Part shown: positions 2,686 through 55,537 of the stretch, piece after piece
How positions within the stretch are numbered: position 1 is the stretch's first letter
Layout of the letters: each line of letters begins with the position of its first letter
Source of the DNA: Anaeroplasma bactoclasticum
GTDB lineage: Bacteria; Bacillota_I; Bacilli_A; ML615J-28; CAG-313
Length of the DNA stretch: 64,000 nt
Direction of reading: 5' to 3'
NCBI GenBank assembly: GCA_023667245.1
Contig: JAMPAL010000001.1
Span: 1,317-65,316, forward strand
Program-made: the position numbers and the translations under genes
Notes under the pieces: generated by a model
Databases searched by the model: none
Told to the model about the DNA's origin: nothing
Seen by the model: the letters and a program-made list of their open reading frames with translations, nothing else

Positions 2686-5358
2686 TTATTCGGAACGAAG
2701 TGCATTCACTGGATCCATCTTAGCTGCAGAGCGAGATGGAACAAGTCCAGAAACGAGTGTCAATAAAATACTAATGGAAACCATAATAATAGCTTGAACT
2801 ATCGTTAAATGAACCAGTGAGTAAAGACCACTCAAGCTACCAATAATCATATTGGCAATAAAAGAAATCAAGTAAGTAATACCTACACCAAATAATCCAG
2901 ATACACCCCCAATAATAAATGTTTCCGCATTAAATAAGTGCGCAACATCCTTCTTTCTACCACCCAGTGAACGAATTACACCAATTTCTTTAACCCGTTC
3001 TACTACAGATACATAAGTAATGATGCCAATCATCACGGTAGATACAATAAGAGAAATCGCGGTAAAAGCAATAAGCGCAGTTGTAATAATATTAATCATC
3101 GTATTGATCATAGAAATGACAATCGATAAAGTATCCGTATACGTCACTTGTGGGCGCTGATCTTTAGTTAATGTTTGATTATTCACAACTAAATCTCCAT
3201 CATTATTCCAGGCATCTAGGTAAGATAGTACCGATTTTTTAATTTCAAAGTTTTTTGGATAAATAGAAATACTATTAGGCAAATCATTTCCTGCAACATT
3301 GCGAAGGGATAATGTATAAAGGGAAATACTAGCCCCACCGCCTAATCCTGGCATCATACTGCTAAGCATTGAATTCATAGACTGACTACCTACAAAACCA
3401 GTTCCTGTTTTACGTGTACCTTCATATAGATATTCAAACTCATACATTACACCAGATGTGATTCCATTCATAGAGCCACTCTTGATTTCTTGTTCTTCTA
3501 GATCTTGCATATAAGTGACAATTTCACTATCTTTGTTCTGTTCTAACATATAGGTAGTTAAAGCTGGTGTATAATAGAAACCACTATACAAAGAGCCATA
3601 ATTTTTGCCTTCTTTGGGACGCAGGATACCCACTACATTTAGTTCAACTCCCTCAGTTGTAAATTCTTCCGCATAGGCTTCATAAGTAAATGGTTTTCTA
3701 AGATCATAGTTTCTTGTATAAATTTGATCATTTGGATAATAGTAAAACTTCTTTCCTAATAGTTCCTCATATGAAAATTCATTTTTATCTAGAGCTTCAT
3801 TGTAAGATGGTGCACCAAATGCTTTGAATGCCATATTTAAAAATTGTTCCTGATTGTAATACCCTAGTTGTGCAAGCACCAAATCCGTCAATAGGGTCTC
3901 ATCATTCACAACAACAAGAATCTCATTTTTCTCTCTTGCCATTTTACCCGTTAATAAATCGTATTGTTCTAAAATATAATCTTCATTGTTTAAAGATTGA
4001 CCGATTGGGTGAGATAATGTAGAAATAAGTGATGCGGCATCTTTATAATCAGTTTCTTGAAGCATCGCTTGATAAATATCTTTGATTGCCGCAAGAGAGG
4101 TTATTCTAGAGTCATTATCCTTATTTTCTGAAAAATCTGTATATATATTATATTCTACATTAATTCCATACCCATAAGACATACATTCAATATATTCTTT
4201 AGGCATTTTTTCTAAATAATCTATATACTCTTTTTCAATTTGATTGGTTACCATAATCGATTGCATCGTCTCAGCTTGTTTTGCAATGGTTTGCAACATG
4301 GAATTCACACCTACAAAACCGTTTTTAACAACAATCTCCATTTTCTCAAAATTACTCATACTATTCATCATTGCATTGATATCATATGCTTGCTCAGAAA
4401 TAGTGATTGGATTGCCTGATAGCATATCGTTTTGTAAATCATCAATATAATTGCTAATACCTGTTGATATCGCTAAAACCAAAGAAACACCAATAATTCC
4501 AATTGAACCTGCTAGTCCTACCATTAATGTTCTTTTGAACTTGCTCAATAAATTACGGAATGACAATTTAAAGGCAGTCCAAAAAGACATTTTCGCTTTT
4601 TCCTGATTTTTATTTTTGGAAGGAATACCTAGCATAGGTGTAGTATGATCATTATCTCTTTCTGATGCTTCTTCTTGTTCACTACAAGGATTAGAATCAT
4701 CTTCTACTTTCCCGTCTAATAATTTTACAATACGAGTAGAATACTTTTGAGCTAACTCTGGATTATGTGTGACCATAATGACCAATTTTTCCTTTGAGAT
4801 TTCTTTGATTAAATCCATAATTTGAACAGATGTTGTGGTATCTAGTGCACCAGTTGGTTCGTCCGCAAGCAAAATCTCTGGTTCATTGACAAGAGCCCTA
4901 GCGATGGCTACCCTTTGACATTGTCCACCAGATAATTGATTGGGTTTTTTATTGTATTGTCCTTTTAAACCTACTTTATCTAGTGCCTTTTTAGCTCTAT
5001 CTACTCTTTCTGCTTTTTCCATTCCCGCAATCGTTAAAGCGAGTTCTACATTTTCTACAATGGTTTGATGGGGAATCAAATTATAACTTTGAAAAATAAA
5101 GCCAATACGATGATTTCGGTAGACATCCCATGCACGATCATTAAACTCCTTAGTTGAAACACCATTAATCACTAAATCACCTGATGTATATTTATCCAAC
5201 CCACCAATAATGTTGAGCAAGGTTGTTTTTCCACAACCAGATGGACCTAAAATAGATACAAACTCATTTTTTCGAAATTGGAGTGTTACACCCTTTAACG
5301 CTTCTACTTTGGTATCTCCCATGACATATGTTTTTTGAATATGACTTAGTTTTAACAT
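2686..5358 (-). CDS. fused ABC transporter ATP-binding/permease protein (MacB/FtsX-type)
   Basis: 890 aa. The N-terminal ATPase has Walker A GPSGCGKT, signature LSGGQCQR and Walker B LLADEPTGALD. It is followed by a TM helix, a large extracytoplasmic domain and a C-terminal FtsX-like 4-TM region. Confidence 0.9.
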   Translation of the reverse strand: MLKLSHIQKTYVMGDTKVEALKGVTLQFRKNEFVSILGPSGCGKTTLLNIIGGLDKYTSGDLVINGVSTKEFNDRAWDVYRNHRIGFIFQSYNLIPHQTIVENVELALTIAGMEKAERVDRAKKALDKVGLKGQYNKKPNQLSGGQCQRVAIARALVNEPEILLADEPTGALDTTTSVQIMDLIKEISKEKLVIMVTHNPELAQKYSTRIVKLLDGKVEDDSNPCSEQEEASERDNDHTTPMLGIPSKNKNQEKAKMSFWTAFKLSFRNLLSKFKRTLMVGLAGSIGIIGVSLVLAISTGISNYIDDLQNDMLSGNPITISEQAYDINAMMNSMSNFEKMEIVVKNGFVGVNSMLQTIAKQAETMQSIMVTNQIEKEYIDYLEKMPKEYIECMSYGYGINVEYNIYTDFSENKDNDSRITSLAAIKDIYQAMLQETDYKDAASLISTLSHPIGQSLNNEDYILEQYDLLTGKMAREKNEILVVVNDETLLTDLVLAQLGYYNQEQFLNMAFKAFGAPSYNEALDKNEFSYEELLGKKFYYYPNDQIYTRNYDLRKPFTYEAYAEEFTTEGVELNVVGILRPKEGKNYGSLYSGFYYTPALTTYMLEQNKDSEIVTYMQDLEEQEIKSGSMNGITSGVMYEFEYLYEGTRKTGTGFVGSQSMNSMLSSMMPGLGGGASISLYTLSLRNVAGNDLPNSISIYPKNFEIKKSVLSYLDAWNNDGDLVVNNQTLTKDQRPQVTYTDTLSIVISMINTMINIITTALIAFTAISLIVSTVMIGIITYVSVVERVKEIGVIRSLGGRKKDVAHLFNAETFIIGGVSGLFGVGITYLISFIANMIIGSLSGLYSLVHLTIVQAIIMVSISILLTLVSGLVPSRSAAKMDPVNALRSE

Positions 5359-5798
5359 GATTCTTTACTACCTCCTTCTATGTTGTTAATGCTTTCATTC
5401 ATCTGTTTGGCTAAATCCAAAAACATTTGATACTTTTCTTCTCCCATTTTACCTTTTACGTTTTCTAAAAAGGGTTGATAAATCAAGCAAAGTTCATCTA
5501 ACACTTTGGTCGCTTTTTTGGTCAAACGGATATAAAAACTTTTTTTATTGTCTGCTGCAGGTTCTTTTATAATCAATCTTTTGATAGATAAACAAACAAT
5601 AGCTTGTGATACAGCTGATCTAGAAATTCCTAGCTCACTAGATAATTTTGATACATTCATATCTTTTTCTTTAGCTAGACCTAACATCATAAATTCTACA
5701 TAATTCAAACGCATTTTTAGACAAGCTTTGGAAATGACATCTTCCATTTTCTTATTGAGTTTATACAAATCGATTAAAATGGTATTTTTATCTTCCAT
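5352..5798 (-). CDS. MarR-family transcriptional regulator
   Basis: Winged-HTH region (VSKLSSELGISRSAVSQAIVCLSIKRLI). I chose the start MEDKNT (ATG at 5798) because it follows the RBS AGAGGGGG. The tracked ORF extends to 5864 without an RBS. The stop overlaps the start of the ABC gene. Confidence 0.85.
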   Translation of the reverse strand: MEDKNTILIDLYKLNKKMEDVISKACLKMRLNYVEFMMLGLAKEKDMNVSKLSSELGISRSAVSQAIVCLSIKRLIIKEPAADNKKSFYIRLTKKATKVLDELCLIYQPFLENVKGKMGEEKYQMFLDLAKQMNESINNIEGGSKESC

Positions 5799-13006: not shown

Positions 13007-14383
13007 CTATGACAATGAATTTTCTTGACTATGCAAAGTTTCAATTAAAGCTTGTTTTCGCACTTGTATGGCCTGTTTTGCTTTTTCAATATCTTCTAGG
13101 TGCGTTTTTTCAAATGTTTCAAATACTTGTTTTTTATATGCATTTATCTTTTCCTCTGTATCCATAATCACTTGAAATGTCATTTCTTTGATGCTTGTTG
13201 GAAATTTTGCCTCTAATGCTTCCATTTGTTTTAAAATTTCTTCAAATGTATAACATACAGCCTGATAAGCTTGACTAGCTAGTTGCTCAGCACTCGTAAG
13301 AGTTACTTCTAAAGAGGCATATTCTGCTTCTAAATAAGACAACTGAGCGGTTTCTTTCATTCGTGTTAGTACATCAATATCTTCTGGAAGGTTAGCTACA
13401 TAGGCTCTTTGTTTCAATAGTTCTGCTTTTTTAGTAGCTAAATGGTCAAGCGCATTTTGATAACTCGATGCATCGCTTACAAAATATTCATAATAAACTT
13501 CTTGAAGGCTTTGATAGGTCTCTGTTAATGTTTGATAAATTGTATCATAAGCAGTGATACTTGTTTGATAGATGGCTTCTAACTGATCTACTGCTTGCTT
13601 TGTGGCTTCTTTTTCGGCTAATCTAATTTCTTGTGCCTTTACTTGTTGATACATTTCCTCTAGTTTGATGCTTGCAAGATTGGCCACTTCTAAATGGTAT
13701 AACTCAACAACATGAATCAACTGATCATATGTTAAATTTTGGATTTCTTCTTCAGTTAAAGTTGGATCTAATGTTTTGGCAAGAGTTTGTAATTCTTCTA
13801 TAACATACCCTTTTAGTTCATTGATTTTAGCTTGCACATTGACCTTCTCACAAGCATTTGCTATATATGATTTCGTTTTTTCTTGCATTTGTTGAATCAG
13901 TTGATCATTTTCGGCACTGATGGTGACGGTGATTTCATTATCTGTGACATTGACCAACAAATATCCCATTTGCGTTTCTAGCCGAATAATCGTTTCAACT
14001 GCCTCATCTAAACTTTTCCCCACAATGGCTTCGCCTTCTATAATCATCTTGCCTTCATCATTCAATCCCCTAATGGATACAACTTGATTGTTTTCATCCA
14101 CAACCATTTCAATACTTGGATTAACATCCACTTGAACAATGGCTTGATGGGCTTCCACTGGTTTTTTGCCTACTACAATCGCCATCACAATGGTTACCAT
14201 AATCATTAGACATACACATGGTGCCAATACTTGCAACCACCTTTTATACTTCTTTTGTGTCTTTCTGCTTGGAATAACGCCTACACGTTCTGATACTTGA
14301 TCATATAATTCTTTTCTAGGTTCACTATTTTCTTTCATTTCGTTTTTAAATTTACTCCTGATTTGTTTTTCGAATTGATTCAT
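13007..14383 (-). CDS. putative anti-sigma factor, single-pass membrane protein with a long helical extracytoplasmic domain
   Basis: 458 aa. It has a short cytoplasmic N-terminus, one TM helix (LQVLAPCVCLMIMVTIVMAIVV) and a beta-rich juxtamembrane segment (VQVDVNPSIEMVVDENNQVVSIRGLNDEG), followed by a Q/E/A/L-rich helical region. Its start overlaps the sigma gene stop by 4 nt. Confidence 0.55.
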   Translation of the reverse strand: MNQFEKQIRSKFKNEMKENSEPRKELYDQVSERVGVIPSRKTQKKYKRWLQVLAPCVCLMIMVTIVMAIVVGKKPVEAHQAIVQVDVNPSIEMVVDENNQVVSIRGLNDEGKMIIEGEAIVGKSLDEAVETIIRLETQMGYLLVNVTDNEITVTISAENDQLIQQMQEKTKSYIANACEKVNVQAKINELKGYVIEELQTLAKTLDPTLTEEEIQNLTYDQLIHVVELYHLEVANLASIKLEEMYQQVKAQEIRLAEKEATKQAVDQLEAIYQTSITAYDTIYQTLTETYQSLQEVYYEYFVSDASSYQNALDHLATKKAELLKQRAYVANLPEDIDVLTRMKETAQLSYLEAEYASLEVTLTSAEQLASQAYQAVCYTFEEILKQMEALEAKFPTSIKEMTFQVIMDTEEKINAYKKQVFETFEKTHLEDIEKAKQAIQVRKQALIETLHSQENSLS

Positions 14384-14886
14384 ACTTCATACACTCTCCT
14401 TAAAATTTCTAGTCCATCATAATAAAGCCCCTGTACTTTCCCAATAGTCATCCCCAAACAACAAGCTATATCTTTGAATTTATAATCATAGATAAAACGA
14501 AGAACCATAATTCTAATGGTATCCTCTTCTAAATACGCACAAAATAAGTCCATCATTTCTCGGTGATGATGCGTAGCATCGGCCGTTATGCTTACAATTT
14601 CATCACTTAAAATCGTATCTTTTTCCTTATTTCGAGTCACATAATTAGATGCAATGTGTCTTGTGATTTGACATATCCATTCCTTGAATTTACCTTTTTC
14701 TTGATATTGATCAATAGAATGCAAAATACGTACAAATACATCACTTACAATGTCTTCAGCATCTTCTATATTTCTAGTGTACGAATACGCAATATGATAA
14801 ATCAAATGTACATATTGGTCATACAATTTATGAAATGCCTCTTCATCCTTTTGTTTTAATTGGCTAATGAAATCAGTTTGGCTCAT
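14380..14886 (-). CDS. ECF-type sigma-70 family RNA polymerase sigma factor
   Basis: Region 2 (FHKLYDQYVHLIYHIAYSY...DAEDIVSDVF) and region 4 HTH (FKDIACCLGMTIGKVQGLYYDGL). I chose the ATG at 14886. The tracked ORF starts at a TTG at 14922 with no RBS. Confidence 0.8.
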   Translation of the reverse strand: MSQTDFISQLKQKDEEAFHKLYDQYVHLIYHIAYSYTRNIEDAEDIVSDVFVRILHSIDQYQEKGKFKEWICQITRHIASNYVTRNKEKDTILSDEIVSITADATHHHREMMDLFCAYLEEDTIRIMVLRFIYDYKFKDIACCLGMTIGKVQGLYYDGLEILRRVYEV

Positions 14887-14970
14887 GATTTGAATGTATT
14901 CCTTTCTCTCTTCACTAAACAAAACCCAAAAAATTCATTTTTTATTCTATATTTTTCTTTATTTAAAAAA

Positions 14971-15009
14971 AGTGTACATTTACACCTCAATCATTTGTAA
15001 ATATACACT
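14971..15009. terminator. long bidirectional terminator-like hairpin
   Basis: 14-bp stem AGTGTACATTTACA / TGTAAATATACACT (one mismatch) with an 11-nt loop, flanked by an A-run upstream and a T-run downstream. Confidence 0.55.
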
Positions 15010-15033
15010 TTTTTGGTTTTATCACTAAATTGT

Positions 15034-15110
15034 ATAAAAAAAGAAGACTGTAATTTGGGGGGATCAGTCTTCTTATACCCAGTCTGTAATTTGGGGGGAC
15101 CAAACTAGGC
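15034..15110 (-). ncRNA. candidate small RNA (about 77 nt) with a duplicated C-rich motif
   Basis: A near-consensus promoter lies directly upstream on the minus strand. The predicted transcript is GCCUAGUUUGGUCCCCCCAAAUUACAGACUGGGUAUAAGAAGACUGAUCCCCCCAAAUUACAGUCUUCUUUUUUU. It folds into a 5' hairpin (CCUAGU/ACUGGG) and a 10-bp terminator hairpin plus U-run. Each hairpin presents UCCCCCCAAAUUA in its loop. No ORF is present. Confidence 0.45.
15045..15099. repeat. direct repeat AG(A/T)CTGTAATTTGGGGGGA, two copies 36 nt apart
   Basis: Copies at 15045..15063 and 15081..15099 are identical at 18 of 19 positions. Confidence 0.9.
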
Positions 15111-15116
15111 ATTAAT

Positions 15117-15145
15117 ATTATAACATAATTTTTTTTAAAAAGCAA
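15117..15145 (-). promoter_or_regulatory. near-consensus sigma-A promoter with an extended -10
   Basis: On the minus strand: TTGCTT (15140..15145), a 17-nt spacer ending in TGT, then TATAAT (15117..15122). Confidence 0.65.
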
Positions 15146-15195
15146 GCATTTTTCGCTATTTTTTGAAAAATTTTGTTGAAATATTGTGTTTTTCT

Positions 15196-15885
15196 CTATT
15201 TTTTGGCAACTTTTGACAAAGCATCTTTGGCTGCAGCTTGATCAGCTTCCTTTTTTGAACGGCCTTGTCCTACCCCTAAAACAATGCCCTCTAGCAAAAC
15301 CGCTCTAGTAAATGTCGGCTCATTGGATGTTCCTTCCTTTTTAATCAATTCATAAACCAAGTTAGATCTGGTTTCAGACTGCACATATTCTTGTAATCTA
15401 CTTTTATAATCCACAAACTCAATCTGGTCATTGGCTTTAATATGTGGAAAGACAATCTTTTCTAATATCTTTTTTACATCACCAATACCATTGGTAAGAT
15501 ACACTGCTCCTAAAAAAGATTCAAATGCATCATTAATTACTGCATCTTTCTTTCTACCACCAGACTGTTCTTCCCCACGCCCCAACAAAAGCAATTGATC
15601 AATGCCTAAGACTTGAGCGTATTTTGCATTGGCATTTTCGCATACATAAGTTGCTCGTAGTTTACTCATTTTGCCCTCTGGCAAATCTGGAAAGTTTTCA
15701 TATATATAATGAGCAACGAGCAATCCCAATACGGCGTCCCCTAAAAATTCAATGCGTTCATTGCTTTTTAAATGATGTTCATTGGCATAAGACGAATGCG
15801 TCATCGCAAGCAAAAAATGGGTAGTATCATGCACACGGATATCAAATTGTCCTAAAATTTCATTTAATTTTTTCTTATTCAACAT
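15196..15885 (-). CDS. rnc: ribonuclease III
   Basis: RNase III signature ERIEFLGDAVL plus a C-terminal dsRBD (KSRLQEYVQ...AAKDAL). Confidence 0.95.
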   Translation of the reverse strand: MLNKKKLNEILGQFDIRVHDTTHFLLAMTHSSYANEHHLKSNERIEFLGDAVLGLLVAHYIYENFPDLPEGKMSKLRATYVCENANAKYAQVLGIDQLLLLGRGEEQSGGRKKDAVINDAFESFLGAVYLTNGIGDVKKILEKIVFPHIKANDQIEFVDYKSRLQEYVQSETRSNLVYELIKKEGTSNEPTFTRAVLLEGIVLGVGQGRSKKEADQAAAKDALSKVAKK

Positions 15886-38051: not shown

Positions 38052-38582
38052 TTATCGTTCTTCTCCTTTTTTCTTATAAATTGCTTTTTCCAAAAATGAA
38101 ACAATATTTTGATTTTTTTCATCTTTGGCATAATCCATTACGGATAAATTTTTTTCATCTACTAAAAGCACATCGGCTCCTAGTGCTATCAATGTTTTAA
38201 TCATTTTCTCATCCCCCAAAATAACGGCTCTGTGTAGCGGTGTTTGTTCAAACTCTCCAGGTATATCAATGTCTGCGCCAGAGTAAACCAAATATTTAAC
38301 TGCTTTTCGGTTATTTTTTTCCACAGCTAAATGCATAGGACTCACAAAATGGTCATCACACAAATTGGGATTGCTTCCCCTTTCTATTAAAAAGGGAAGC
38401 AATTTGGAATGGTTTTTTTCAATGATATAGTGAAGCAATGTTTTGCCTTGATCATACTTCATATTTAAATCTAGTTCTTTTTGTAGCATTTTTTTGACTT
38501 GCTTTTTATAATATCGCGTTGTTTTTTGTGTGTTTTTGATTTCCTGAATAAAAACAATCGCTTCCGTTTTACTTATGCTCAT
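38052..38582 (-). CDS. ankyrin-repeat protein
   Basis: 176 aa with at least 3 ANK repeats (GKTLLHYIIEKNHSKLLPFLIERGSNPN; VSPMHLAVEKNNRKAVKYLVYSGADID; QTPLHRAVILGDEKMIKTLIALGADV). Its ATG overlaps the giant gene's TGA (ATGA). Confidence 0.85.
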   Translation of the reverse strand: MSISKTEAIVFIQEIKNTQKTTRYYKKQVKKMLQKELDLNMKYDQGKTLLHYIIEKNHSKLLPFLIERGSNPNLCDDHFVSPMHLAVEKNNRKAVKYLVYSGADIDIPGEFEQTPLHRAVILGDEKMIKTLIALGADVLLVDEKNLSVMDYAKDEKNQNIVSFLEKAIYKKKGEER

Positions 38583-41500
38583 CCTTTTTTCTCCAATGCC
38601 AATTGTTGAATAATGTGGTTAACAACCTCATCATACTGTGTATATAAATCATGAATATACACGACTTCCACCTGCCAACCTCTTTTTTTATACTCTTGAT
38701 GATAATAAATATAATCATCTACAAATGTTGTAGTATAATCTTCGCTTTTACCCATAATCATAATTGCAAAAGGTTTCTTTCTTTTGATAATAATATCAAA
38801 TGAACCAAACCCACTCTCTGCCTTTACTTTTTTATCTCTTAAACTTTGAATCAATAATTGAGTAATTCCTTCTGGCTTTTTTTCTTGCATAACATTTTTT
38901 CCAATGGTCTGTTGAATTGACTTTAGAATCATCTCATTTTCACTTTCTAACCGATGTTTCAAATAAAATACTTGTACACTGTTGTATACCGCAATAAAAT
39001 TTTTAAACACCAACTCTTTTTCGGAAGCTTCTAAATCTCTAAAATCATCATAATAGATATATACATCATTGACATAGCGATTACCTTCAGTTAAAGCATT
39101 CAAAATACGAATGTGATAACATAAAATGTTACCTATTTCTTCTGGAGAATAGGCATTGACCAATCCTTTTACAATGCTCGTATACGCTTTTCTTCTAGTG
39201 GATTCATTGGCAACCAATACATTGATAATGTGAGATGGATTCATATAAAACCGATTTAAAATATGCTCAATAAATGCTTCAAAATGATCGACTTGAATAA
39301 TATCGCATTGATTATCATAGGCATAAATATATTGATTATTATAACTCCAAATATTGTTGAATTTGGAATTCATTTGGATATAACGCCTTTTATAATCTAC
39401 AGTACAAGCTTTTCCTAATCGTTGCATCAAAGCATTTGAAACAGAAGTTTGGAATAATTTATCACCAAAAATAATGACTTGCTTACACTCTTGAATCCGG
39501 TAATATTTATTGGAAGTAGATAAATGAGCATCATCTACAATGACCAAATCAAATACTGATATATCCAAATGACTATTGAGAATATCTAAATCAGATAAAA
39601 AGACAGGTACATTTTTGGATAAAGCATTTACAATATGGTTATAGTCATTAAAGGCATACCCATGATTCAAGTTTACTTTTTTCCGAATATCTTCTACTTT
39701 TTTCTTTAATTCAAACCCATTTTTTTGACAATACGCATATTCAAAATCTTGATAATCATTTAAATATTGCAATAAAGATTGGGATGACAAAAGTTCTGGA
39801 TATTGAGATTCAATAGTACGATAATAGTCAAGAAATACACTATACATAAAGCGTTTAGATATGCCTAGTCCATATTTACAACTTCGAATACCTTCATATA
39901 AATCATTTAAGTGATAATTCAAAAATCGTTCTGTTAATACATTAATAGTCAAGATTGCATCAATTTGATCTACCTTATTGAGATATGTCTTAAATATTTT
40001 GATATTGGCATCAAAACTATTGGATTGAAAATCATTTTGACTACCTTTAAAGCAAACAGAAAAGGCCCTAAAAGCACTAACCCACTGAGCGTACATCACA
40101 TCAATTGCTTTGATATCTTCTAAAAGATGATTGAAATGTTGATCTTCAAAAAGTGCATTAATATCACAATTAGGAGATATTTTTTTCAAAAAATCATCAT
40201 AATGTTCAATAGTTTGACCAATATCACTGATAATGGTATCTAAACCCCGATAATATTTGCCTAAATTTTGCTTATATCTTGGTGCATTGGTTTCTAAATC
40301 TTTTTGTAATTGTTGTTGCATTCTATCATTTTCAATTAGAGTAACAATATCATCATACGTTACTGTATCTTTTTGAACAAAAATGCCTTTGATTTCTTGC
40401 TTCAATTCAATTACTTCTTTTAAATACAATTGCCACAATTTAATTTTTTCAACTTTATCTAATATGCTTCCATCTACAATGTGTATATTGTAATTGCGAA
40501 GGCTCGTACAAATACTAGAAGTTTGATAGCCTTCTGATTTGATTTGTGTCAATAATTGATGAATCACTTGAATATAGTGGTCTTGATATCTACCTTTTTT
40601 ATATTCATGCAATAATTTTTTCCAAGCAGAAATAAATTGATGATCCAAAGTAGTTACAAACTGATTGAATTTCACAAACTGCTCTACTAGTTCAATATCT
40701 AGTTCTTTTTTACCAAATACCTCTTGAATTGCATCTTGTAAAATTTCCATAGTGTGATAATATTTTTTTACATGTTCGACAATGAATTTTACATCTTGCT
40801 TTTCTTTTTTCGCAATTTTACGATTGATGTAATGCATAACAAAGCGATCTTGATTTTTTTTGTGCAATTCAACATCTAAAAAGCCCTTCGTTAATTGTTC
40901 AAAATGTGTAATAAAGCGAGGAAGGAAAATCACTTCTTCTAAATACAATAAATACGCATCCGTAATCGTCTTTTCATATTTACTAAAAATCATAGGTTGT
41001 TCTAAATAACAATCGATTACAAGTGGATTCAATAGATGTTGATTTAAAAATTGATCCAATTGTGTAAAAAAGCTATAACATGTATCTGTGATTTCTTTTA
41101 GACCAAATATGTTTTTCAATTTACTTACTAGTTCAGTTGTTTGATTGACGTTTTGTTCCATATCTTTGGTTAACAACACCAATTTTTCATCAAACTGAAT
41201 CAATCGATTAATAAAAATTGCATCTGTTGTTTCCCAGTTTTCTTCTACATTTAAATGGTCAGCAAGAATCACCTTTAAAATTTTTTCCATTCGTCCAGGA
41301 ATATAATTGTCAATAGTAGTCGCCTCATAATATTTAGATAAATTATATTTGATATCTACTAAGCCCTGAATTTCACGAAGGGATTTAAGTGTTTCCCGTC
41401 TAGTTTTTTCATCTATCCATTCCGGAAGTGGTCGAACAGAGGCAAAGTGATACACATGAGAAATGGTTTTATATAACTCATGAATGGTACTAGCAGGTTT

Positions 41501-42940
41501 GATTCCATATTTAGCCATCGTTTTCTTTTCTTTTTGATATAATTCAATATTGATTTCTTGTAATTCCTCTAAGCGCTGAATAATGCTTTCTTTAGTAATA
41601 TTATTTCGATAAATTTGTAGACGATGCCATACATTTGTTGCGTAAGTATCTATCATCTTTAAAGCATCTTCTATTTCAAGTAAATCATGATAAATCCGTT
41701 GCACTTCATGTTTTTCTAGTGTGATTTCTAATTGAATCGGTTCTATAGAAGGGTTTTCTTTTTTCAAGATAGCCAATTCTTCAAAAATATGGTGAATGGT
41801 ATAGCCATGTATTTTGGTCTGAAAATGATTGAGATGGTTGAACAATTGCGCAAGAATATCCAAAGAAAGATCTGACTTTCCTTTGTTTTCAATATCCACC
41901 TCTGGTCTTTCAATTCTTCGCAAGTTTCTGGTTAAGTTATAGGATAATCCGTCAAATCCCAAATAAGAAATACTTTTTTCTAAGTCGAATAAATTATCTA
42001 AATCCTGATTGATATATAAAACTTTTTTCCCTTTGAGCACTTGGTCAGAAAGAATATTTAAAATGGTATGTGTTTTCCCACTACCAATTCTACCATCAAT
42101 GGCAAATTTTTCTCCCTTATCCACCTTCAATAAAACGTATTTTTGATCTAAGTTGGTAGGTAGTATGCCTTTAATGTTTGTAAAATAGTGATTGACAATC
42201 TTTTCTTCAGTTGTCTCAAAGATAGACCGCTCAGTTGTCATAAAATCCTGACCAATTAAAATATCGCCATATTCTACGTTTCCAATTGTCAAATAGTTAG
42301 TAGGATTGACTGTTGTATGCAGTACTTCTCCCAAATCCAAACAAAGTTTGTCAATATCTTGTACAGAATAAATCTTCCGTGATACATATTCATCGTAGAA
42401 TCGTTTTTGATAATCGGTTTCGTTACCACCAATAATTTTATATTTTGATTTTCGTAAATAATCAATTGGATTGGTCTTGTCTTTTTCTATATCTCGAAAA
42501 TACAATACAGCCAATTCTTTTATAATTTTCGTATTAATCATCGGCGTACTACTGGCCACGATCTCAAAGCTTTGATAATCAAAGTCAAAAGGGATGAGAA
42601 CAAGAGGAGCATATTTTTCACAAGATGATTGATCATAATATTTGATTACACCAGCAGTTAACAAAAATTTATAAGACGAATTTTTCAGCCGCAAATTAAT
42701 CAAATAGTTCAGTTGGTAATAGTAATCAAACAAAATATCTCCCGTAATCATACCGCTACCCTCACTAAGGATTTCAAAGTTCATCAACTCTTGTAGATTT
42801 ACTTTCTCCCCCTTGATGATTTTATTCATCATCTTCATATCTATGGCACCTAGTTCGATATAATAATCATCTTCTAAAATATTAATCAAATGCATATTAC
42901 TTGAACGAATATAGTATGTATTGTCATTTTTGATTTTCAT
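38579..42940 (-). CDS. 1453-aa P-loop protein, a divergent or degenerate DUF4011/Upf1-like SF1 helicase relative with a C-terminal restriction-endonuclease-like module
   Basis: Uninterrupted ORF with its own extended -10 promoter and RBS GAGGTAG. The single Walker A GRIGSGKT is encoded at 42071..42094. DLVIVDDAH (39524..39550) and VIIFGDKLFQ sit where motif II and motif III would be. The C-terminal string is FDIIIKRKKPFAIMIMGKSEDY...RGWQVEVVYIHDLY. Confidence 0.8.
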   Translation of the reverse strand: MKIKNDNTYYIRSSNMHLINILEDDYYIELGAIDMKMMNKIIKGEKVNLQELMNFEILSEGSGMITGDILFDYYYQLNYLINLRLKNSSYKFLLTAGVIKYYDQSSCEKYAPLVLIPFDFDYQSFEIVASSTPMINTKIIKELAVLYFRDIEKDKTNPIDYLRKSKYKIIGGNETDYQKRFYDEYVSRKIYSVQDIDKLCLDLGEVLHTTVNPTNYLTIGNVEYGDILIGQDFMTTERSIFETTEEKIVNHYFTNIKGILPTNLDQKYVLLKVDKGEKFAIDGRIGSGKTHTILNILSDQVLKGKKVLYINQDLDNLFDLEKSISYLGFDGLSYNLTRNLRRIERPEVDIENKGKSDLSLDILAQLFNHLNHFQTKIHGYTIHHIFEELAILKKENPSIEPIQLEITLEKHEVQRIYHDLLEIEDALKMIDTYATNVWHRLQIYRNNITKESIIQRLEELQEINIELYQKEKKTMAKYGIKPASTIHELYKTISHVYHFASVRPLPEWIDEKTRRETLKSLREIQGLVDIKYNLSKYYEATTIDNYIPGRMEKILKVILADHLNVEENWETTDAIFINRLIQFDEKLVLLTKDMEQNVNQTTELVSKLKNIFGLKEITDTCYSFFTQLDQFLNQHLLNPLVIDCYLEQPMIFSKYEKTITDAYLLYLEEVIFLPRFITHFEQLTKGFLDVELHKKNQDRFVMHYINRKIAKKEKQDVKFIVEHVKKYYHTMEILQDAIQEVFGKKELDIELVEQFVKFNQFVTTLDHQFISAWKKLLHEYKKGRYQDHYIQVIHQLLTQIKSEGYQTSSICTSLRNYNIHIVDGSILDKVEKIKLWQLYLKEVIELKQEIKGIFVQKDTVTYDDIVTLIENDRMQQQLQKDLETNAPRYKQNLGKYYRGLDTIISDIGQTIEHYDDFLKKISPNCDINALFEDQHFNHLLEDIKAIDVMYAQWVSAFRAFSVCFKGSQNDFQSNSFDANIKIFKTYLNKVDQIDAILTINVLTERFLNYHLNDLYEGIRSCKYGLGISKRFMYSVFLDYYRTIESQYPELLSSQSLLQYLNDYQDFEYAYCQKNGFELKKKVEDIRKKVNLNHGYAFNDYNHIVNALSKNVPVFLSDLDILNSHLDISVFDLVIVDDAHLSTSNKYYRIQECKQVIIFGDKLFQTSVSNALMQRLGKACTVDYKRRYIQMNSKFNNIWSYNNQYIYAYDNQCDIIQVDHFEAFIEHILNRFYMNPSHIINVLVANESTRRKAYTSIVKGLVNAYSPEEIGNILCYHIRILNALTEGNRYVNDVYIYYDDFRDLEASEKELVFKNFIAVYNSVQVFYLKHRLESENEMILKSIQQTIGKNVMQEKKPEGITQLLIQSLRDKKVKAESGFGSFDIIIKRKKPFAIMIMGKSEDYTTTFVDDYIYYHQEYKKRGWQVEVVYIHDLYTQYDEVVNHIIQQLALEKKG

Positions 42941-49973: not shown

Positions 49974-52900
49974 TTATGAAAATAAAATATAAAATGAATA
50001 ATCAGAATTCATAAAGGCAGGAACAAACACACTGTCATCATAAGAAGCATTCGATAAGAAATACTCTTCTCCATTATACGTTCCCGTAAAGCCTTCATAT
50101 GCATCATACGCGGTAATTACATATTCTATTCCATTTAATGTAATTTGATTTTCTGTGATTACGAGTACATAAGTTTGACCATTAGATTCTTTTTGATATG
50201 TACCTACCCATGCCGCAGGAATTTGAATTTCTGTTGGTGTTTCTTCTTTAACTACATCACAAGTCACATTTAGCGTAAAATCACTATTCATCACCATCAC
50301 TTGGGCAGGTAAATCTCCCCATGGTGCCATATATGTAACATAATATGTTTCACCATTATATGTACCAGTCCATCCTTCATATTCATCATATTCACTTGGA
50401 ACAAAAGCTGTACCATTGATAGTAATTGCATCTTTTGTAATTACTACAATATATTCTACATCATTCTTTGTTCCTTTATACGTACCTATACTTTCTTCTG
50501 GTATAGTTACTGTTGGAGTAGGTTCTTCAACTACATCACAAGTTATTACTAAACTATAGTCACTATTCATCACCATTACTTGCGCAGGTGAATCTCCCCA
50601 TGGTGCCATATATGTAACATAATATGTTTCACCATTATATGTACCAGTCCATCCTTCATATTCATCATATTCACTTGGAACAAAAGCTGTACCATTGATA
50701 GTAATTGCATCTTTTGTAATTATTACAATATATTCTACATCATTCTTTGTTCCTTTATATGTACCTATACTTTCTTCTGGTATAACTATCTCTGAAGGAT
50801 TCGGATTTGGGTTATCAGCCTTTTTGGTAACAATATAATTTTCACGCATTGTACCGATTTGAAGTTTATCATCAGAATAGTAGAAAGAAACATAATATTC
50901 ACTTACTTCTCCAAGTTTTCCTTCATAACCAGTTGCATCTTTATTTGTAATGACATAACGAACATCATTGATGACAATACCTGCATATGTAATGACAACA
51001 GTTATATTATTGGCCTCATTTACCCAAGTTCCTACATAGCCATCTTCTATTTCAAAGTAAGCTTCTGGTGTCAATGTAGTTGCAAAAGAAGTGGAAAAAT
51101 CATTTCTTGCAAAATATAATTCCGTACTAATTTCATCATCTACTAAAACCAAATAATATGTTTCACCATTATATTTACCTACTAATCCTGTTTGTTCTGT
51201 ATATCCTGTAATAGTAAATTCAATATCATCTACAAAAACAACTTTAGAATGAACTTCTATCTTATGCCCTTCACCCTTCCAAATTCCTTTATATGCATCT
51301 GGAATCACTACATCTTTTGTTTCTTCATCTAATGTATAAATCCGTACGACATAACCTTCTGCGTTAAATTGTGCTAATTCATTGGCATTTGACCACATCA
51401 TCAAACTATATGTCACACCATCTAATGTACCTACAAAACCTTCTTGGCTAGAATAACTTGTTACAACAAACTCTACACCATCTACAAAAATGCCTTCTTT
51501 TGTAACTACAATTTGATGTTGATCATCACTATTCCATGTCCCCATATATGGATCTAGTACACTGGTTTGAACCATATTTTCAAAGTTTACTGGAACAATA
51601 GTTGAATTGATATTGCTGTAAGTAAGGGTAACTGTGCCTTTATAACCATATACTACATATTCATATACAATTTGATACAATTCACCATCTTTTATAGTCA
51701 TTTGTAAATAAGTCACATATGCGCCTAATCGTTGGGCATCATAATCTTCACCAATCCATGATGCAATTTCGGATGCAATTTCTGGGGTGCGTGCTACAAA
51801 AGTACCATCTCCTACATATTCCATTACTGCAGGGTCGAATGTATTGAATTTGGCTTGAACATCACCAATTGTTTTGAAATTAGAAAGTGCATCACCCACA
51901 GTAACGACTTTACCATCATATGCAAAACGATATACAAAACCGTTTAATTCTAAGTATCCATATGTGATACCATCAGTTGCATAATCAGAATAAATCGATT
52001 TGTCATCTACATATACATTATAAACAACATCTTCTTCACCAGCCCATTCATCCAAATGAACAAGCGTATAGTTATTGGTAATTTTAGATAATGCTTCTTC
52101 TAATTGACTGTGTTCAGGTGATTTTTCAAAAGGTTTTACCTCTACTCCACTCTTAGCTGTACCATGTTCAGTAATATCAAATGTATATGTAGATACATAT
52201 GTATCTATAATATTACCTTCGCTATCCTCCACTTCAATAGGTTCAGTCACAAATTCTAGTTTTACAATCTTATCATCACTGACATATACATAGAACTTTT
52301 CAATAGACTCTTCCCATCCTGTGATACAAGATGCAACTGGTTTTCTAAGATATTTAAGTTCATATTTACCAGGTTCAATCATTTCAAAATCACTTACAGT
52401 TAAATCTTTAAATGGATTGTCATATTCATCAAATGGTTCACCAAGATCAACTATATATACTTTATTTGTCATGCTAATATATGGTTGTCCACAATTTCCT
52501 TCATAATTGATAAAACCAAGATTATACAATACCTCACCCGTTGCAAGATCTCTCTCAACTTGAGAAACAGATTCTGAATCAAAAATAGTCACTAATGTAT
52601 GTTGAACAAGTGTCTCATCTTTTTCATATACAAGTGTATATTGACCTGTACATTTTAAAGCAGTTTGAACCGATTGCAATGCAGCAAGCGGAATAGTTTT
52701 ATCCACTTCTTTAGTGATGACTTCAATTTGTGTATATTTGGTCAAAACAAATTGACATGTTCCATTCGTAAAGTCTTGAACTTCATTGTTGATGCTTACA
52801 CTTACAATTTCAAAATTATCTTTGGCTGATGCAATAAATGTAACTTGTGTGCCTTCAAGATATTTTCCGTCTTCTTGCTTTGCATCTTCTGGATAACTCA

Positions 52901-53267
52901 ATTCATATGTAACTTGGGCATCATTTGCCTTTACTGATATAGCATAAAAATGAGTAGATTCACCTTGTTTTTCAAATTGAACATTTACTTTTGTATCTTG
53001 GTAAATCGCAAATACATATTTACCATTTTCTAGTTCAACTCCTTTTCCATTGACGTCTACATTGGCGATAACATAGCCTTCATTGGGTTGAACATTCAAT
53101 GTAATGCTTGTCCCTTCTTTATATCCTTTTTCATTCGTTTCTTTTGTGTAAGTAACTGACCCTTGCTCAGAATCAAATACTATATCTAAGCTATAGTATG
53201 TAACAACACATGATGTTGCAAAGGTTAAACCCAACAAAAGAGTTATCATACATAAAAACTTTTTCAT
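49974..53267 (-). CDS. large surface lipoprotein with InlB-B-repeat-like N-terminal domains and six about-90-aa C-terminal modules
   Basis: 1097 aa with lipobox FATS-C. Two N-terminal segments show the Y..GT.VT..A.P..GY pattern. The C-terminal half contains six copies of a (Y/W)xGTW/Y...I..VDG/NG..Y/F..T.Y....G.xGxxxG..Y module. Confidence 0.8.
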   Translation of the reverse strand: MKKFLCMITLLLGLTFATSCVVTYYSLDIVFDSEQGSVTYTKETNEKGYKEGTSITLNVQPNEGYVIANVDVNGKGVELENGKYVFAIYQDTKVNVQFEKQGESTHFYAISVKANDAQVTYELSYPEDAKQEDGKYLEGTQVTFIASAKDNFEIVSVSINNEVQDFTNGTCQFVLTKYTQIEVITKEVDKTIPLAALQSVQTALKCTGQYTLVYEKDETLVQHTLVTIFDSESVSQVERDLATGEVLYNLGFINYEGNCGQPYISMTNKVYIVDLGEPFDEYDNPFKDLTVSDFEMIEPGKYELKYLRKPVASCITGWEESIEKFYVYVSDDKIVKLEFVTEPIEVEDSEGNIIDTYVSTYTFDITEHGTAKSGVEVKPFEKSPEHSQLEEALSKITNNYTLVHLDEWAGEEDVVYNVYVDDKSIYSDYATDGITYGYLELNGFVYRFAYDGKVVTVGDALSNFKTIGDVQAKFNTFDPAVMEYVGDGTFVARTPEIASEIASWIGEDYDAQRLGAYVTYLQMTIKDGELYQIVYEYVVYGYKGTVTLTYSNINSTIVPVNFENMVQTSVLDPYMGTWNSDDQHQIVVTKEGIFVDGVEFVVTSYSSQEGFVGTLDGVTYSLMMWSNANELAQFNAEGYVVRIYTLDEETKDVVIPDAYKGIWKGEGHKIEVHSKVVFVDDIEFTITGYTEQTGLVGKYNGETYYLVLVDDEISTELYFARNDFSTSFATTLTPEAYFEIEDGYVGTWVNEANNITVVITYAGIVINDVRYVITNKDATGYEGKLGEVSEYYVSFYYSDDKLQIGTMRENYIVTKKADNPNPNPSEIVIPEESIGTYKGTKNDVEYIVIITKDAITINGTAFVPSEYDEYEGWTGTYNGETYYVTYMAPWGDSPAQVMVMNSDYSLVITCDVVEEPTPTVTIPEESIGTYKGTKNDVEYIVVITKDAITINGTAFVPSEYDEYEGWTGTYNGETYYVTYMAPWGDLPAQVMVMNSDFTLNVTCDVVKEETPTEIQIPAAWVGTYQKESNGQTYVLVITENQITLNGIEYVITAYDAYEGFTGTYNGEEYFLSNASYDDSVFVPAFMNSDYSFYILFS
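50250..50807 (-). repeat. tandem 279-bp duplication inside the lipoprotein gene
   Basis: The copy starting at 50281 (TCACTATTCATCACCAT...) recurs at 50560. The encoded 75-aa cores (IPEESIGTYKGTK...VMVMNSD) differ at 2 residues. Confidence 0.9.
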
Positions 53268-54781: not shown

Positions 54782-55537
54782 CTAACTTTCTCTATATGTT
54801 TCGATAAAACAAGATGGACCCATAATATAGTTTTTACCCACTATTATGATGCCTCCATCGGATTGAATTTGGATTTCTTTTGGTTGAATTAAACCAAGAC
54901 GAAGTAAAACTGCATATGTAGCCATCATCCCCGTACCACAACTAGCCGTAAAACCAACACCTCTTTCATAGGTTTTGATATATATCTTTTCCGTATCTTC
55001 TTCTTGTTTTACTATATCTATATTGACATTATTTTCAAAAGGAGGATATTGATATAAATCAGGAGCATCACGAACTGCACTATCCCAATCCGAAACCATC
55101 ACTACACCATGCCAAACACCTGTATGAACCAAATAAACAGGATAGGCATGCTGATTGATTTTAATCCATTTGGGAAAATCAACTGGTTGATTGAAATCCA
55201 TTGAATAATGAATTTGCATATCAACACGAACTAAAAAGGGATCTATTGAAATAATCTGAGTATGAATCAAGCCACTTCTCGTGATAACATCATTTTTTAA
55301 TTCTGTAATCAACTGATGCATATAACAATAATGAATAAAACAACGAATGCCGTTTCCACACATTGTTGCTATGCTACCATCTTGGTTATAAATAATCATT
55401 TCTAGTGGATCTGTTTTTACAAGGATGAAACCATCATATTGATCCTCGCAATATTGCTTTGCGATGTGACTATTATCCCATCTATTTTGATAAGGGGCAA
55501 TAATAAAGGTGTTATTACTTCCATGATATATTTCCAT
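54782..55537 (-). CDS. dapF: diaminopimelate epimerase
   Basis: Two catalytic Cys motifs, MCGNGIRCF and SCGTG. Confidence 0.9.
   Translation of the reverse strand: MEIYHGSNNTFIIAPYQNRWDNSHIAKQYCEDQYDGFILVKTDPLEMIIYNQDGSIATMCGNGIRCFIHYCYMHQLITELKNDVITRSGLIHTQIISIDPFLVRVDMQIHYSMDFNQPVDFPKWIKINQHAYPVYLVHTGVWHGVVMVSDWDSAVRDAPDLYQYPPFENNVNIDIVKQEEDTEKIYIKTYERGVGFTASCGTGMMATYAVLLRLGLIQPKEIQIQSDGGIIIVGKNYIMGPSCFIETYRES

Follow-up and report, generated by a model that had tools for sequence, protein, structure and literature searches.

What does the short segment between the RNase III gene rnc and the downstream sigma factor gene encode? We examined this locus within a window of 64,000 nucleotides, that is, the whole stretch of DNA that was analysed. 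The DNA comes from a host lineage of gut Bacilli and has a GC content of 33%. Conservation among relatives indicates that the locus is a real, strongly constrained small RNA (sRNA) gene of this lineage. We consider it probable, with room for other readings, that the gene specifies a trans-acting anti-Shine-Dalgarno (anti-SD) sRNA of about 75–80 nt, which belongs to the C-rich-loop class.

Promoter, hairpins and terminator

All elements of the unit locate on the minus strand. The rnc stop codon is followed by an A/T-rich spacer of 50 nt, which ends at the −35 box TTGCTT (15145–15140). Just 5' of this box, an A-rich block (AAAAAAUAGCGAAAAA, 15149..15164) resembles an UP element and may act as such or as an operator. 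The −35 box, read directly from the sequence, is separated by 17 nt from an extended −10 element, TGtTATAAT (15125–15117), in which TG occupies 15125–15124 and TATAAT 15122–15117. From the geometry of this promoter, transcription is predicted to start at the G at 15110, which lies 7 nt past the −10 element and forms the first base of hairpin 1.

Hairpin 1 (15110–15077) consists of a 10-bp stem and the 14-nt loop GUCCCCCCAAAUUA (15100–15087). Hairpin 2 (15074–15041) also has a 10-bp stem and a 14-nt loop, AUCCCCCCAAAUUA (15064–15051), and its arms form a 100% complementary inverted repeat. A U-tract with seven consecutive U (15042–15036) and a following AU occupies 15034..15042, where the 3' end is expected. 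Read from 15110, the RNA is arranged as GCCUAGUUUG-GUCCCCCCAAAUUA-CAGACUGGGU-AU-AAGAAGACUG-AUCCCCCCAAAUUA-CAGUCUUCUU-UUUUUAU. In the minus-strand RNA, both loops carry UCCCCCCAAAUUA, with a run of six C in each. The duplicated segment forms a direct repeat of 22 nt with 20/22 identical positions and a spacing of 36 nt. Elsewhere in the 64-kb window, no run of at least five C lies within a loop whose closing stem measures at least 8 bp, and no paralog of the sRNA was found there.

In its minimum free energy structure, the 77-nt RNA forms these two hairpins and nothing else (RNAfold, −24.4 kcal/mol, z = −4.9), and none of 200 shuffled 77-nt RNAs folded as well as the native one. Hairpin 1 contains several G-U pairs, at which the opposite strand would have A-C mismatches, so the fold is specific to the minus-strand transcript. 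Neither AUG nor GUG is present within the RNA, and a listed 52-aa ORF starting with TTG (15145–14987) begins inside the −35 box and crosses the terminator. Hairpin 2, with a GC-containing 10-bp stem and U7 directly after it, has the form of an intrinsic terminator. At the level of sequence and conservation, the unit thus appears to have what this class of genes requires, namely its own promoter, a Rho-independent terminator and no ORF. These results agree in every element with the preliminary description of the locus, which had reported TTGCTT, 17 nt and TATAAT with a TG extension on the minus strand, an RNA without ORF, two hairpins displaying a duplicated sequence in each loop, and a 10-bp hairpin plus U7 at the RNA end.

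Generic scans missed both ends of the unit, the promoter because TTGCTT matches TTGACA at only 3/6 positions and hairpin 2 because its loop exceeds 8 nt. In the AT-rich window, seven promoter-like hexamer pairs were found and 7.7 are expected by chance. The hexamers alone are not significant, and the significance of the promoter therefore comes from its conservation.

Conservation in close and distant relatives

We scanned contigs representing one genome per species with the loose pattern CCCCCAAATT-N15–40-CCCCCAAATT. At least two of the matches listed were true relatives (L017 and L070), and the noise comprised cyanobacterial, Bacteroidales and Lachnospiraceae repeats. A stricter two-loop pattern applied to metagenome contigs gave one true match, L130 from human gut, the rest being tandem repeats. 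The element was also present in the Logan contigs X2, X4, X5 and X27, which cover rat-gut metagenomes and three coded organisms. A phage element was considered and rejected, as the scan of viral contigs gave one unrelated tandem repeat.

Identity of the RNA body (15110–15041) is 100% across the window, L017, L070, L130, X2, X4, X5 and X27. In these close relatives, the flanking genes rnc, plsX and recG are 87–93% identical, the 85 nt upstream of the RNA 87–92% and the 85 nt downstream 44–73%. Substitutions among them reach position 15112 and none falls within 15111–15036, so that the sole variation of the RNA is the length of the U-tract, from U6 to U9. Zero changes in 75 nt at approximately 10% divergence has a chance of about 4e-4 per lineage. 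Judged from these comparisons, the sRNA body is under purifying selection. The A-rich block at 15149..15164 is conserved in the window, L017 and L070.

The contigs of X5 (organism C), which cover window positions 15029–15181 and 15088–15134, include one copy with a window-identical RNA body and different sequence on both flanks. A second X5 contig holds an L159-like copy, with the same 5' arm and loop as L159 and the 3' arm UCAAAUUAGGC. The sRNA family is therefore probably present in two copies in this organism.

Two further observations concern the scanned records themselves. The L017 record is labelled 'MAG: Prevotella sp. NALB_7821b_9', yet its recG-plsX-rnc-sRNA-sigma region shares approximately 90% nucleotide identity with the window. 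It clearly belongs to the same Bacilli lineage, and the label probably arose from wrong binning or naming. Meanwhile, the loose pattern scan brought up two conserved non-coding elements in mouse-gut Lachnospiraceae, each with a GGGGG/CCCCC hairpin. Element one reads AAAUUUGGGGGAAGAACCUUACCCCCAAAUUCCCCCAAAUGG..UAUCCCCCAAAUU and element two UUUUUGGGGGAUAACGCUAUCCCCCAAAUUUGAAC..UUCCCCCAAAUUAUC; their loci are L002, L035, L039, L045, L090, L097, L098, L108, L114 and L115, and L003, L008, L016, L026 and L030. Four of these loci, scanned at the Rfam gathering score, matched no family.

Distant orthologs were sought via RNase III homologs and their contigs. The unit stands directly after rnc in seven lineages, whose RNase III proteins share 82% (L159), 81% (L161), 80% (L137), 79% (L140), 76% (L163), 74% (L143) and 67% (L146) identity with that of the window; the overall range for ortholog rnc is 67–83%. 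Their common layout comprises an A-rich block, TTGCA, about 17 nt, TGnTATAAT and, 6–8 nt past the −10 element in all orthologs, the G that opens hairpin 1. The exceptions belong to L163, which has TTTAGA at the −35 position and TGATATACT at the −10. In the alignment, TTG is invariant in the −35 columns, with TTGCA or TTGCT in 7/8 lineages, and TGnTATA-T is invariant in 8/8; the spacer and the flanks vary. The upstream block is recognisable as A-rich sequence plus (U)AGC(G/A)AAAA in L137, L159, L140 and L143. Where rnc is only 61–66% identical (L147, L165, L153, L156 and L150), a plain terminator or nothing follows the gene.

Folded singly, the orthologs adopt the predicted structure, with z-scores from −5.9 to −9.8 (n = 7). 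The stem sequences are unrelated between distant lineages and the pairing is kept. Since MAFFT cannot align unrelated stems, a structural alignment was assembled manually on the basis of each sequence's own fold, and covariation was counted in Python. In this hand-anchored alignment of the six two-hairpin members, canonical pairs fill 105 of 105 cells in the 20 pair columns, and double-sided changes occur in 18 of these 20 columns. When the partner is slid by 1–3 columns, pairing drops to 36–46%, with 5–8 such columns. As the alignment was built from the folds, this covariation count is descriptive and the z-scores of the single sequences carry the statistical weight. RNAalifold returned the same two-hairpin structure. 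In the 3' arm of hairpin 1, the window and L159 differ at four positions, and pairing is kept at each.

In every hairpin-1 loop, C5–7 is followed by A/U-rich sequence, and the same holds for the terminator loop in 6/8 lineages. Runs of at least five C are otherwise almost absent from the ortholog loci. Both the loops that expose the C-rich motif and the structure around them are thus conserved, as is characteristic of the class. Loop length ranges from 6 to 14 nt across the family, and the spacing between the loops varies. The preliminary description had named a lack of conservation in relatives as an argument against an sRNA; we find the promoter, the two-hairpin fold and the loop C-runs kept, with covarying stems.

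A few lineages depart from this scheme at the 3' side. The L140 copy faces a convergent gene and is devoid of a U-tract. L137 and L161 keep hairpin 1, other hairpins replace their second C-loop, and an integrase gene adjoins. We observed this tyrosine-integrase gene between the sRNA and a gene for an ODP/flavodoxin-like protein, at 3994–4947 in L137 and 3960–4886 in L161; in L159, the ODP/flavodoxin-like protein gene (3691–3900) directly follows the sRNA, with no integrase between. The integrase lies beside the sRNA in exactly the lineages that lack the second C-loop, which suggests that a mobile element integrated at the 3' end of the sRNA gene in L137 and L161, as happens at tRNA and tmRNA genes. 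We rejected the idea that the insertion had split the sRNA in these two lineages, because no displaced second C-loop was found beyond the integrase.

Neighbouring genes, transcripts and alternative readings

Upstream of the unit, rnc (15196..15885, minus strand, stop codon 15198–15196) encodes RNase III of 229 aa with the Pfam domains Ribonucleas_3_3, Ribonuclease_3 and dsrm. Between 15196 and 15146, from the end of rnc to the −35 box, we found no hairpin. Hairpin 2 is the intrinsic terminator of the sRNA and also that of rnc, as the preliminary description had held; metatranscriptome contigs running from rnc to 15034 point the same way. Its term 'orphan' is slightly inaccurate, given the tight synteny of the unit with rnc.

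Downstream, a symmetric second hairpin (14966..15014, minus strand) begins 20 nt past the sRNA. In this inverted repeat, an A-run and a U-run flank arms of 19 nt; it folds at −20.2 kcal/mol (z = −4.7) and is also present in L017, with several changes in both arms. It lies outside the sRNA and is predicted to insulate the sigma operon, as a back-up or bidirectional terminator. The gene for a sigma-70-family (ECF/SigI-like) factor (14380..14922, minus strand) is a neighbour only and not part of the sRNA unit, and an RsgI-like anti-sigma gene (13007–14383) comes next after it.

The sigma gene follows the sRNA only in the window, in L017 and in the X2 contig. In L070, L130, X4 and X27, the DNA past the terminator is unrelated to that of the window and has no sigma gene. 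Depending on the lineage, the gene downstream of the sRNA is the sigma factor gene, an unknown ORF, an integrase gene, the ODP/flavodoxin-like protein gene, a convergent M20 peptidase gene, a T-box-metNIQ operon or an EamA transporter gene. The T-box leaders precede ABC transporter operons of the metNIQ type and come shortly after the sRNA, at 5122–5355 in L140, 3904–4138 in L143 and 4076–4307 in L146 (121–128 bits). Elsewhere in the window, we notice a 1453-aa ORF without Pfam match (38579–42940, minus strand), which is followed by a 176-aa ankyrin-repeat protein (38052–38582, minus strand) and then by a protein with a DisA-type diadenylate cyclase (DAC) domain; these three together are unusual in a Firmicute. 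A 1097-aa ORF (49974–53267, minus strand) contains an InlB B-repeat-like domain and near-identical internal DNA repeats 279 nt apart (around 50320 and 50599).

The sRNA sequence is contained in four RNA-labelled mouse-gut metatranscriptome runs, as assembled contigs of low depth. These contigs span 15034–15240, 15034–15176, 15034–15185 and 15034–15204. Two of them end no more than a few bases from the U-tract, and another runs 389 nt past it. All four extend 5' of the predicted start into rnc, at a depth that is low and similar to that of the neighbours. The contigs show at most read-through from rnc that ends at hairpin 2, and they are compatible with the presence or the absence of a primary 77-nt RNA. 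An RNA of about 77 nt is largely lost from standard libraries, and the sRNA sequence had no match in miRNA libraries. We argue for a promoter of its own, as predicted, because the promoter is conserved and the X5 copy stands outside the rnc context.

Four other readings of the locus have to be weighed against the anti-SD sRNA. That a chance hexamer pair lies beside an ordinary rnc terminator, with hairpin 1 and the C-runs functionless, has a practically negligible probability: promoter-like sites do occur in the window at chance frequency, but an RNA body without substitutions at about 10% divergence, and a promoter, fold and C-loops kept in distant orthologs, do not fit this account. It is very improbable that the segment serves as a leader or attenuator of the sigma/anti-sigma operon, or that the motifs are sigma-I promoter boxes (ACCCCC..AA, 15 nt, CGAA), even though the next gene in the window specifies a sigma-70-family factor with an RsgI-like anti-sigma and the Bacillales sigma-I −35 consensus, ACCCCC--AA, resembles TCCCCCCAAA (PMC4711584). 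Neither CGAA nor CGWA was found at the required spacing after either C-run, and we rejected the promoter boxes on this ground and because conservation of the motif extends to loci with no sigma-I gene behind it. The C-runs lie in loops of covarying RNA stems, a full terminator and a second terminator hairpin stand between the sRNA and the sigma gene, and the element is conserved before six or more unrelated genes, one of them convergent. Since the downstream gene differs in nearly every lineage, the segment is not a leader of the sigma operon, the outcome that the preliminary description had set against its sRNA. Distinctly unlikely, too, is a structured 3' UTR and terminator that stabilises the rnc mRNA or acts as an autoregulatory element of RNase III, with a small RNA arising only by processing. 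The element always stands immediately after rnc in eight lineages, hairpin 2 is the only terminator available to rnc, and metatranscriptome contigs join the 3' end of rnc to 15034. Yet TGnTATAAT and TTG, at a fixed distance from hairpin 1, are conserved where the intergenic DNA is not, the X5 copy sits in a different context on both sides, a terminator needs no C-runs in its loop, and stems of 10 bp are too short as substrates of RNase III. The two readings are compatible, and both promoters may feed the same 3' end.

The main rival to anti-SD pairing, which we regard as unlikely, is a protein-binding or decoy RNA. Its twin C-loops would bind a dimeric or poly(C)-preferring protein, such as the KH-domain proteins KhpA/KhpB or Rho, and would titrate or recruit it. 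Sponges of the CsrB/RsmZ type present identical loop motifs on separate hairpins, a design to which the two identical motifs of our RNA, 36 nt apart on separate hairpins, correspond. The large loops (12–14 nt), whose full sequence is invariant among close relatives, also speak for such a role, and the strong, constitutive-looking promoter would suit an abundant titrator. The C-run itself is ambiguous: C6–7 pairs best with GGGGGG and is an odd match for the canonical GGAGG of SD sequences, so the loops could instead be sites of protein binding. On the other hand, only the C-run and A/U richness are kept family-wide, with loop length varying from 6 to 14 nt and the spacing varying too, which fits a pairing seed better. 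L137 and L161 have lost the second C-loop, and the locus has no linked gene for a candidate partner.

Proposed mode of action and comparison with known sRNAs

On the anti-SD reading that we prefer, the mechanism would proceed as follows. A strong promoter of the housekeeping type (A-rich block, TTGCTT, 17 nt, TGnTATAAT) is predicted to start transcription at about 15110. The RNA would fold into its two hairpins, of which hairpin 2 with the U-tract would terminate both the sRNA and the rnc mRNA. Each apical loop would then display the same 13-nt seed UCCCCCCAAAUUA, and the loops would most probably pair with G-rich ribosome-binding sites and thereby silence genes. Such pairing would block binding of the 30S subunit, and the mRNA would probably become accessible to RNase III, RNase Y or RNase J. 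The two redundant seeds could make two contacts or serve two targets, as in LhrC. The promoter, the existence of the stems rather than their sequence, and the C-run plus A/U of the loops are what stays invariant, which identifies the loops as the presumable working parts.

For 52 start regions in the 64-kb window, we calculated the energies of duplexes with the loops, a check that is partly circular because a C-run always favours G-runs. The best three duplexes fell on three genes with G-run SDs, at energies well beyond the median of −5.35. These candidate targets are a dapF-like gene (54782–55537, GAGAGGGGGAA, −15.8 kcal/mol), a MarR-like gene (5352–5798, −13.5 kcal/mol) and rsgA (−11.4 kcal/mol). 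Autoregulation of rnc through a G-run SD was also considered and rejected, as the ribosome-binding site of rnc lacks a G-run in the window and in most sRNA-carrying lineages, and there is thus no consistent sign of rnc as a target. A G-run SD of rnc (GGGGGG or GGGGG) was observed in some relatives, at 2989–2994 in L153/L155 and at 2989–2993 in L163.

We speculate further that the sRNA could found a lineage-specific, sometimes multicopy family in gut Bacilli, with a functional coupling to RNase III. It would be co-transcribed with rnc in addition to using its own promoter, its C6–7 loops would control a small regulon with GGGGG(G) SDs, and RNase III would cleave the duplexes; alternatively, the poly-C loops would be sites for a poly(C)-binding regulator of Firmicutes. 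This broader proposal is rather doubtful.

Almost nothing is known about the RNA regulators of low-GC gut Bacilli from rodents and humans, which are uncultured or barely cultured. The locus is a very well supported sRNA candidate, with clear boundaries, two obvious seeds and eight natural variants. It would extend the C-rich-loop, anti-SD design of Firmicute sRNAs to another lineage in a minimal two-hairpin form. It also illustrates that a terminator loop can be selected as strongly as coding sequence. The concepts remain unchanged, since only the family would be new, and this kind of regulator is already familiar.

In order to place the RNA among known families, we scanned the whole window and 13 loci at the Rfam gathering score. 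No sRNA family, RsaE included, matched the window or nine ortholog loci, and the only matches were the metNIQ T-box leaders of three relatives. At E ≤ 10, the elements of the window, L143 and L146 gave only noise, with RsaE absent, apart from a weak match of LhrC to L146. LhrC (RF00616) aligned with L146 over its full length at 25.9 bits (E = 0.029), where the gathering cut-off is 110 bits. It is the only Rfam model with even a weak full-length alignment to an ortholog, and the window copy had no match to it. The preliminary description had expected an undescribed sRNA analogous to RsaE/RoxS and distinct from RsaE itself, and this expectation holds in view of the Rfam result and the conserved promoter, fold and C-loops. 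The RNA is best read as a new family of the known C-rich-loop class and not as a member of RsaE/RoxS, LhrC or FsrA.

By analogy, the sRNA appears as a minimal version of the C-rich-loop design of RsaE/RoxS and LhrC. In LhrC of Listeria monocytogenes, a UCCC motif is present redundantly, with loop A and the terminator loop both carrying it, and either copy can bind the G-rich SD/RBS region of the target lapB (PMC4132741). LhrC (clan CL00114) and our sRNA are both small (about 100 nt), are built from a 5' hairpin and a terminator hairpin, and show the same C-rich motif in the apical loop and the terminator loop. LhrC is multicopy, and at least one genome probably contains two copies of the sRNA family. 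They differ in the linker, which in LhrC is single-stranded with a third motif and in the sRNA measures 2 nt without a motif, and in the seed, which is CUCCC..UUUU in LhrC and C6–7 plus A/U in the sRNA. LhrC also comes from a different lineage, and control of the LisRK type is a property of LhrC.

The C-rich regions of RsaE/RoxS pair with the SD and block 30S binding, and RNase III cuts the duplex; in RoxS, two of these regions lie within the 10-nt duplication CCCCUUUGUU (PMC4409812). RsaE/RoxS (RF01820; Staphylococcus and Bacillus) and the sRNA share several unpaired C-rich regions within duplicated sequence, with CCCCUUUGUU occurring twice in RoxS and a 22-nt repeat, 20/22 identical, holding the two C6 loops in the sRNA. 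The architecture differs, since RoxS has three to four C-rich regions, some of them in a single-stranded stretch; the genomic context differs as well, and the RsaE/RoxS covariance model did not match the sRNA even at E ≤ 10. Pairing with the SD region of TCA-cycle or redox mRNAs and control by ResDE, Rex or SrrAB are properties of RsaE/RoxS. FsrA and CsfG of B. subtilis, and RNAIII, SprD and the Rsa RNAs of S. aureus, likewise use a UCCC or C-rich loop motif that targets the SD (PMC4409812, PMC4132741). This class feature is common to them and the sRNA, with no similarity detected in sequence or model. The sRNA stands apart from this group in its reduction to two hairpins and in its uninterrupted run of C6–7, a homopolymer that exceeds in length the seeds (UCCC or C4) known from proven anti-SD sRNAs.
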